The position numbers were made by a program, and so were the translations under genes. Source: a virus (lineage: Duplodnaviria; Caudoviricetes). Taken from it: a stretch of 64,000 nt of DNA. Below, one piece after another: positions 20,754 to 47,992 of the stretch. A model generated the notes under the pieces. The model did no database searches. It saw only the letters and a list, made by a program, of their open reading frames with translations, and was not told where the DNA came from. The stretch lies in IMG/VR virus record IMGVR_UViG_3300017963_000189. One strand, written 5' to 3'. Within the stretch, counting starts at the first letter, position 1, and the number at the start of each line of letters is the position of its first letter.

Positions 20754-20933
20754 TATTTATTCCTTTATTTTATATTTCTTTTTCGCCAATTTAAGATTTT
20801 GTGCGGTCGCTTTATCTTTTTCTTCATCACTTGTACAACCATAACATACATCTTCTGACATACCAAAAATAACTAAATTGATTTCTTCACCACACTTTTT
20901 ACATATCATAATTTATTCCTTTATTTTGTGTAG

Positions 20934-21004
20934 TCCGCCCACCGGGAATCGAACCCGAATAAGTGAGTTTAGAAGTCACTGTTCTACCATTGAACTATGG
21001 GCAG
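20934..21004 (-). tRNA. tRNA with CUA anticodon (amber suppressor)
   Basis: GTGAC-TTCTAAA-CTCAC; standard numbering from the D stem puts CTA at 34-36 (C31:C39 mismatch); normal D and T arms. Confidence 0.75.
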
Positions 21005-46550: not shown

Positions 46551-47219
46551 TTAAGATAATAATTCTAATAATCCATTTATTATTGTTTCTTTATTTTTAC
46601 GATAATCTTTTTCCCAAATAACAATAACGTTAAATCCCATTGATTCTAATAGTTGTTTTTTTTCTTTATCATATTTCCATATTTCTTTTGCTTTAATTTT
46701 CTTTTTGTTTTTTGTTATCAAATGATTTTTATCATATACATTTGGATTAGCATGCCAGTAATCTCCATTATATTCTACAATTATATTTTTGTTAGGTACA
46801 AATATATCTACAAAATACTTTTCAATATGTTTTTGTTTTTCAACTTGTATTTTATTTTTTGTTAATATATTTATTATTTCTATTTCAGCTTTTGATGATC
46901 TTCCTTTTTGCCAACGAACATCTGAATTGTTCCATATCATTGATTTTTTCATTTTATCATAAAAATTTTTATCTTTCCATTTTTCTTTAAGAGTTTTACT
47001 TATAGAGTTTTTGTGTTCTTGACTTAACTTTTTTCCTATCTTTGCATTTGTTATATTTTTTTTGTGAGATTCGGTTTTTGATTTTCCGGATAACGCATTA
47101 GATAGATTCTTTTTATGTTCTTCTGAAAAGGGTTTTTTGTTTTTTTGACTACGTTGCATTTTTTCTCTATATTCCGGATCGGCCCATAACCTTTTCATTT
47201 TTTCAGATCTTGATTCCAT
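46551..47219 (-). mobile_element. Free-standing homing endonuclease-like gene (NUMOD3 repeats plus Vsr/DUF559-type nuclease)
   Basis: SEEHKKNLS/SQEHKNSIS repeats; SKAE, VDIF, VEYNGDYWH, IVIWE; very A-rich. Confidence 0.75.
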
Positions 47220-47280
47220 ATAATTTTCCCCTTTATAATAAATATAAAGGTTTTCATTTTTTTAATAACCTCTTAAAAAA

Positions 47281-47483
47281 GTAATTATTTCCTGTAGCCA
47301 GGATTCTGTCGTTTAAGATAGTCATTTATCTTTATGTGGCCTCAACCTTGCTATTATCGACCCGCTCACCGTCTAAGCTATTTTGAGTTGCATCCTCAGT
47401 GGTACAAACGACTTTCGTCTCCCATCTTAAGCAGCGATGTCCTGAGCTTCCTCTCCGTAGAGCGACTATCCAGAAATAATTAC
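47281..47483 (-). ncRNA. rnpB: Compact RNase P RNA (203 nt)
   Basis: P1 GTAATTATTTC/GAAATAATTAC, P2 GATAGTC/GACTATC, P3 CTCT/AGAG, P4 AGC(T)CAGGA/TCCTGGCT with bulged U, GAGGAA (CR-I), GCAAG (CR-IV), ACAGAA (CR-V). Confidence 0.88.
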
Positions 47484-47992
47484 TCTTTTGGTATTTCTAC
47501 ATTGACCATATCAAAACTATAATACTCTCTATAATATGTGTCAAGGATTAATTTCTTCACATCATAATTATGATGATTTATATCATACAAAGTTTCTACA
47601 TAAACTCCAGGTGTTTTCTTGTCTATATTCAATATCTCCGACAACGCCAGAGCGACAGCAGGCGACCGTGACAAACCTGCCTCACAATGAATCATAAAGT
47701 TTTTGTGTTTTTTATTTTTCAATCCAAACTCAATGATTTTTCGAGCATCACTATCATCAATTTGTTTTGGTTTAACTACCTCATAAAATGATGAAATTGT
47801 ACCGTCTGCCCGTTCATCATGAAATCGAAGATACAAAACATCTTTCATAAGTGGATTTTTCACCACTTCATATTGTGGATGTTCCGGCGACACTATTGAT
47901 ATACAACTAAATGGTACATCAATTTTGCTCATAAAACCTTGATCAGTAGCCATAGCTACATTGACTACAATAAATCTTATATTCATACACAA
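47480..47992 (-). CDS. Protein-tyrosine/dual-specificity phosphatase-like protein
   Basis: IHCEAGLSRS (HCX5R P-loop). Confidence 0.85.
   Translation of the reverse strand: MCMNIRFIVVNVAMATDQGFMSKIDVPFSCISIVSPEHPQYEVVKNPLMKDVLYLRFHDERADGTISSFYEVVKPKQIDDSDARKIIEFGLKNKKHKNFMIHCEAGLSRSPAVALALSEILNIDKKTPGVYVETLYDINHHNYDVKKLILDTYYREYYSFDMVNVEIPKE

Follow-up and report, generated by a model that had tools for sequence, protein, structure and literature searches.

A phage-borne, strongly reduced bacterial-type RNase P RNA supported by Rfam matches, covariation and placement among tRNA genes

The RNA gene and its domains

The window analysed here is a stretch of 64,000 nt of DNA from a tRNA-rich giant phage. 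Between positions 47281 and 47483, on the minus strand, it contains a 203-nt RNase P-like RNA, the existence of which is confirmed. Matches to models of the Rfam RNase P clan support its identification as an RNase P RNA of bacterial type, strongly reduced and borne by a phage, as do the tracts of the catalytic domain, covariation among relatives and placement in tRNA arrays. Taking homology, conserved structure, family and genomic context together, we regard the locus as quite probably a phage gene whose product is a miniature, type A (bacterial) RNase P RNA, which would be catalytic. An earlier reading of the bare letters (hereafter the sequence-only reading) had proposed an RNase P RNA of 203 nt at this interval; the coordinates proved exact, the strand is minus, and the motifs quoted then are in the RNA sense. 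RNA positions run from 1 (window position 47483) to 203 (window position 47281). The features of the locus, all on the minus strand, are as follows:

47516-47544 (-): sigma-70-like promoter sequence TTGACA-N17-TATAGT, about 26 nt upstream of P1; 11 of 12 consensus positions matched
47281-47483 (-): whole miniature RNase P RNA gene, from the P1 5' strand to the P1 3' strand; 50.7 bits with RF00010, 190.7 bits with family model R2
47472-47483 (-): P1 5' strand (RNA 1-12), partner 47281-47292 (RNA 192-203); both-side changes in 12 of 12 pairs among relatives
47464-47470 (-): P2 5' strand (RNA 14-20), partner 47317-47323 (RNA 161-167); five of six modelled pairs covary, G14-C167 read from the sequence
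47453-47462 (-): P3, 3-bp stem and UACG tetraloop (RNA 22-31); CUC/GAG becomes CAC/GUG in relatives L202 and L179
47440-47453 (-): J3/4 GAGGAA and P4 5' strand AGC-U-CAGGA, bulged U at 47445 (RNA 31-44); aligned with the GAGGAAAGUCCGG region of RF00010
47430-47433 (-): P6 pseudoknot, J5/7 strand UGCU (RNA 51-54), partner loop bases 47363-47366; four pairs, 100% paired in 36 sequences
47395-47435 (-): vestigial specificity domain, 41 nt between the P5 strands; P7-like 5-bp stem (RNA 58-62/82-86), asymmetric internal loop and 3-bp GAC-GAAA-GUC hairpin
47388-47394 (-): P5 3' strand and J5/15 tract, GAUGCAA (RNA 90-96); P5 100% paired, with one pair occurring as CG, UA and AU
47341-47387 (-): P15-P16-P17 arm (RNA 97-143), 9-nt L17 loop GGUGAGCGG, GGU at 47345-47347; P15, P16 and P17 all covary
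47323-47331 (-): J18/2 tract AGAUAAAUG (RNA 153-161); aligned with AGAUGAAUG of RF00010
47296-47309 (-): J2/4 ACAGAA and P4 3' strand UCCUGGCU (RNA 175-188); P4 97.8-98.9% paired, six of eight pairs compensatory
47275-47280 (-): U6 tract right after the P1 3' strand, read from the sequence

With thresholds lifted, the Rfam model for bacterial class A RNase P (RF00010) matched the window globally at 47279-47481 (50.7 bits, E-value 1e-14), the alignment of the window RNA covering model positions 1-367, and bacterial class A was the best match within the RNase P clan. A search with Rfam RNase P models was the check proposed with the sequence-only reading, and its outcome lies below the curated gathering cut-off of 100 bits. 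Since the window RNA stands at half that cut-off, it is missed by routine annotation; a gathering-mode scan of the window reported 40 tRNAs only and no RNase P RNA. Within the RF00010 alignment P1, P2, P3, GAGGAA, the P4 strands, GCAA, P15, GGU, AGAUAAAUG and ACAGAA are all in register, and the positions of the specificity domain and of P18 are deleted. As a single sequence the window RNA folds moderately better than its shuffles (z = -2.3 only), and our case is therefore built on comparison with relatives.

The window RNA is a complete type A catalytic domain (P1-P6 and P15-P17) with P18 missing. P1 comprises 11 Watson-Crick pairs plus one U-G, P2 has the 7 bp that had been read from the letters, and the P3 described at the same time is a 3-bp stem (RNA 22-24/29-31) under its tetraloop, a hairpin that is longer in other relatives. 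The long-range helix P4 is formed as in RF00010, its 5' strand AGC-U-CAGGA (RNA 36-44, bulged U39) pairing with UCCUG-GCU (RNA 181-188) between the flanking J3/4 and J2/4 strands, and the bulged U separates 3 bp from 5 bp, just as it does in E. coli M1 RNA. Both the bulged U and the compensatory character of the P4 changes had been part of the sequence-only reading, and the latter is now seen across relatives. The bulged-U helix P4 builds the RNase P active site, and GGU binds the 3' end of the tRNA. In an alignment of 11 sequences no variation was found in GAGGAA, the bulged U, the UGCAA of J5/15 or the GGU, which is aligned to GGGU of RF00010 in an arm that corresponds to that of the model. 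Two of the conserved tracts named earlier, GAGGAA (RNA 31-36) and ACAGAA (RNA 175-180), are present; the third, GCAAG (RNA 133-137), is instead the P16 3' strand with the first G of GGU, and the true J5/15 tract is UGCAA (RNA 92-96). The P6 pseudoknot joins J5/7 to the L17 loop, and in three of its four pairs both bases have changed, GC being replaced by UA and UA by AU, for instance. P18 is absent from the window RNA between P15 and J18/2, where a region of 23 positions in the RF00010 alignment is down to 4 nt; relatives L001, L123, L136, L185 and L203 do have P18-like hairpins.

The specificity domain of cellular enzymes reads the T/D-loop elbow of the tRNA. In the window RNA this domain of roughly 160 nt has shrunk to 41 nt, with about 37 nt standing where RF00010 has about 140 model positions, and one 5-bp stem and one 3-bp hairpin stand in place of the P7-P14 domain of that model with its elbow-binding regions CR-II and CR-III. 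The much-reduced specificity domain foreseen from the sequence, including a GAC-GAAA-GUC hairpin (RNA 65-74), is thus what the comparison found. Four of the five pairs of the P7-like stem covary and the 3-bp hairpin stem is invariant (36 sequences); in the 11-sequence alignment GGAGAC...GUCGU and AC of the remnant do not vary, and the following U hardly does. This conservation indicates that the 41-nt remnant is under selection.

Relatives in phage genomes and covariation

BLAST searches against GenBank phages gave matches only in the largest published genomes, LR756501 (735 kb) and LR756502 (642 kb), precisely on the RNA, and compensatory changes in P4 and P5 could be recognized by eye in both copies. 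A pattern drawn from these two copies and the window retrieved five IMG/VR contigs of 30-416 kb, and a slightly relaxed version retrieved 98 metagenome loci, of which about 40 proved genuine. The covariance model was started from the window RNA and our structure of it, rebuilt after alignment of 22 clean relatives, and used for a renewed search, which returned 42 matches (36 distinct) with scores of 93 to 198 bits and E-values of 1e-19 to 1e-43. Other DNA patterns were of less use: the first one had no matches in IMG/VR, and a second, GACGGTGAGCNGGTC, was discarded as unspecific (more than 119 matches), 38 screened loci being without a model match.

All carriers are phage contigs. A pattern search of 185,579 species genomes produced 29 matches, of which 28 were chance and one, a 548-bp MAG contig, was a true member. 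Exactly one copy per record was found in the nine phage records searched whole, namely LR756501, LR756502, LR745206 (634 kb), IMG/VR contigs of 416, 348, 345, 104 and 30 kb, and phage DLP6; the LR745206 copy had been missed by the DNA pattern and was found by searching the whole record with the model. The copy in the cultured Stenotrophomonas phage DLP6 (KU682439.2 105772-106020; L258, L261) is unannotated, lies between CDS AAY80_165 and a tRNA-Arg gene, ends 5 nt before the latter and scores 54.7 bits with RF00010. Two further relatives, L259 and L256, scored 61.3 and 32.4 bits with RF00373 of the RNase P clan. For the LR756501 copy an Rfam scan in E-value mode gave no match at E 0.01 or below; the family model scored it at 143.6 bits. 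The GC content of the relatives' loci ranges from 26% to 61%, and one high-GC relative (L171) showed no link to any cultured phage.

Among the 36 distinct sequences, 94.3% of base-pair cells hold standard pairs, compared with 69.5% after shuffling, and the covariation score is 0.585, compared with 0.160 for the shuffled control and at most 0.091 when partners were slid. Apart from the 3-bp hairpin, which is invariant, every helix showed changes on both sides. The search model never contained the P4 and P6 pseudoknots, and their pairing therefore constitutes independent tests of the structure. These results bear directly on whether the RNA could be a non-functional, decaying fragment of a captured host rnpB, as a score under the Rfam cut-off and an adjoining homing-endonuclease-like gene might suggest. 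Compensatory changes across the helices contradict decay, and 36 distinct relatives with the same reduced architecture at loci of such different GC content, each of the nine records searched having a single copy, likewise count against it; we regard this origin as extremely improbable.

Genomic setting, tRNA genes and protein partner

In the window ARAGORN predicted 42 tRNA genes, every one of which shares the minus strand with the RNA; the RNA gene itself is situated between tRNA clusters. Across the family, tRNA genes are near the RNA in 24 of 36 loci, every one of them on the RNA's strand, and many copies have tRNAs on both sides within 3-60 nt. The promoter-like sequence at 47516-47544 would drive transcription of the window RNA. 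It is included in the 15 sites of the motif TTGACA-N17-TATAnT, mostly TTGACAA...TATATT, that occur in the window (3952 to 62170), all on the minus (coding) strand, where 0.4 would be expected by chance. The U6 tract could serve as terminator; a simple terminator scan returned nothing at 47275-47280.

The upstream neighbour is an ORF of 170 aa (47480-47992, minus strand) with a weak match to dual-specificity phosphatases; it spans the promoter of the RNA, and its UAA stop falls within the first four bases of P1. Downstream, at 46551-47219 on the minus strand, lies a gene for a DUF559/MTES_1575 endonuclease-like protein, the DNA of which is similar to that of a Hef-like homing endonuclease gene in Campylobacter phage CP30A; a mobile element may sit beside the RNA gene here. 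Neither neighbouring protein has the look of an RNA-binding cofactor.

A search of RNA libraries for the window's own stretch found no carrier. Short contigs of relatives (<95% alike) over the RNA alone were present in RNA-library runs, a weak hint of expression that is no proof of transcription, ends or level. One contig of 201 nt from a wetland metatranscriptome (run X8, record 8), belonging to a relative <90% alike, joins the position of 47275 to that of 47488 with 8 extra letters. This 3'-to-5' junction was seen in a single contig at depth 2; a circular RNA, a permuted gene or tandem copies might explain it.

The flanks of the window tRNAs (11058-51528) are uniform: 40 of the 42 have U at -1, and positions -3 and -2 are U/A and A/U, respectively. 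At the 3' end 41 have C74, none has C75 and 32 have A76; CCA is thus generally not encoded though C74 is, and a complete CCA was found once. Bacterial RNase P contacts U-1 through J5/15 and C74 through GGU, both within the catalytic domain. The uniform U-1 and C74 fit a reliance on catalytic-domain contacts, which would link them to the window RNA. The tRNA at 20933-21004 (minus strand) has the anticodon CUA (an amber suppressor, labelled Pyl by ARAGORN), which suggests that part of this phage may treat TAG as a sense codon.

Alternatively, the phage RNA might be an active RNase P with relaxed or altered specificity, devoted to odd tRNAs, tRNA-like RNAs and array junctions that the host enzyme handles badly, and not mere added capacity. 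The reduction of the specificity domain to 41 nt in every family member would agree with this, as would the uniform signals just described and the unencoded CCA of 41 of the 42 tRNAs. Most of these tRNAs, however, are ordinary (34-69 bits in Rfam) and should suit the host enzyme, and the sequence of the remnant is invariant, so that some role in recognition may persist. We rate altered specificity as unlikely.

Six-frame translation of the 64-kb window revealed no rnpA-like ORF and no RNR motif, in agreement with the sequence-only reading on this point. RnpA homologues were found in the phage collection only in LR756502 and LR745206. The former encodes an RnpA of about 100 aa (LR756502.1 525189-525473; L225) that matches PF00825 with 52 bits, above the Pfam cut-off, and has the RNR motif, with close relatives on contigs of 481-635 kb; the latter encodes a compact homologue (PF00825; LR745206.1 76462-76740; L263). 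Because both records also carry the RNA, a holoenzyme with an RnpA-type protein is plausible. LR756501 and three large IMG/VR contigs with the RNA had no detectable RnpA, so a phage-encoded partner is not general, and in most carriers the likely partner would be the RnpA of the host.

A rather different role would be that of a catalytically irrelevant mimic which titrates host RnpA or competes for pre-tRNA and thereby shuts down host tRNA maturation. The RnpA-binding part of P RNA is in the catalytic domain, which is the part that was kept, and the window is without rnpA. Against a mimic stand the invariant active-site features (the bulged U of P4, the adenines of J3/4, J18/2 and ACAGAA), which a decoy could do without, and the invariance of the GGU that binds the 3' end of the substrate; moreover, the large tRNA set of the phage itself would be starved by a decoy as well, and two carriers supply an RnpA of their own. 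Such a mimic appears very unlikely to us.

Possible function and known RNase P RNAs

For a functional RNase P RNA, the following course of events can be proposed. The RNA would be made from its own promoter, on the same strand as the 42 tRNA genes found in the window. Its relatives would be transcribed within the tRNA array and freed by enzymes that process tRNA ends. Together with an RnpA-type protein (that of the host for the window phage, phage-encoded in some relatives) it would cleave the 5' leaders of phage pre-tRNAs, with contacts near the cleavage site (U-1 to J5/15 and C74 to GGU) offsetting the lost elbow contacts. The outcome would be that tRNA maturation is sustained through infection. 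Engineered bacterial P RNAs without a specificity domain are much weaker enzymes, which counts against this reading. We also put forward, tentatively and as a possibility of rather low probability, that the family is a natural catalytic-domain-only RNase P that reads signals at the cleavage site (U at -1, C74 without C75) and not the elbow. It would then provide a private channel of tRNA maturation that tolerates non-canonical tRNAs and works when the host RNase P is limiting or disabled, and it might even act protein-free or as a circular or permuted RNA, as hinted by the one joined RNA-library contig.

Compared with bacterial type A RNAs (RF00010; E. coli M1 RNA/rnpB, Thermotoga maritima), the phage RNA has the same P1-P6 and P15-P17, P6 between L17 and J5/7, GGU before the P15 3' strand, and GAGGAA, UGCAA, AGAUAAAUG and ACAGAA in the same register. 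It differs in its length (203 nt versus roughly 350-400 nt), in the absence of P8-P14 and, in the window copy, of P18, in being phage-encoded and often within tRNA arrays, and in its RF00010 score of 50.7 bits against a cut-off of 100.

Another natural RNA of similar size is type T RNase P RNA of the Thermoproteaceae (Pyrobaculum, Caldivirga; Lai et al. 2010, as cited in PMC12974513 and PMC8172020), which reportedly has about 200 nt, keeps the catalytic domain and has nearly lost the specificity domain. Type T is archaeal and works with archaeal proteins, whereas the phage RNA has P6, an L15-type GGU and RF00010 as its best match; the archaeal-type catalytic domain in an archaeal genome that marks type T is not found here. 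In view of the bacterial type A hallmarks, the reduction of the phage RNA is independent of type T, and the likeness is convergent.

Small or divergent P RNAs also occur in cellular bacteria. That of Mycoplasma fermentans has 276 nt and is without P12. P RNAs without P12-P14 and P18 are known from CPR bacteria (PMC8172020). Like the phage RNA, those of M. fermentans and the CPR bacteria have lost peripheral helices and are detected only below Rfam thresholds; unlike it, they keep P7-P11 and the elbow-binding modules, and the shorter phage RNA has only a P7-like stem and one hairpin. Engineered catalytic-domain ribozymes, namely mini-M1 RNA and the B. subtilis C-domain with P protein, are likewise catalytic domains on their own and are reportedly active with the protein subunit (Green et al. 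in 1996 and Loria & Pan in 2001). These are laboratory deletions of weak activity, whereas the phage RNA is of natural and conserved design and has an invariant remnant of 41 nt. The setting of the phage RNA is similar to that of rnaC and rnaD of phage T4, stable RNAs of small size and unknown function encoded where a tRNA array ends. The two are unrelated and were rejected as distant members: across the T4 tRNA region the family model scored no more than 8 bits, and no Rfam RNase P model matched rnaC or rnaD.

RNase P RNA is viewed as a ribozyme common to all cells. Our literature search brought up neither an RNase P RNA of a phage or other virus nor a printed description of this family, so that it is apparently the first RNase P RNA encoded by a virus. 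When megaphages were scanned with the full set of Rfam models, tRNAs and a tmRNA were the only RNAs reported (PMC8172020), and RNase P is not mentioned in the huge-phage paper. The family would also be, to our knowledge, the smallest natural bacterial-type P RNA and, as a natural experiment, would reveal how small a part of the ribozyme is enough in vivo. With it, the translation toolkit of huge phages (tRNAs, synthetases, tmRNA) would extend to tRNA processing.

A second architecture was observed in four distinct members of the family (L124:710-918, L126:1254-1468, L221:1525-1717 and L142:4387-4595). P3 is gone from these RNAs, the 5' strand leading directly into AGGAAG, and the strand after J18/2 pairs with a strand past the P4 3' strand and not with a 5' P2 strand, examples of such pairings being GACGAGUU/AACUCGUC, GACGGGUU/AACCUGUC and UCAAGGUU/AACCUUGA. 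This arrangement looks like a natural topological rearrangement of P2.
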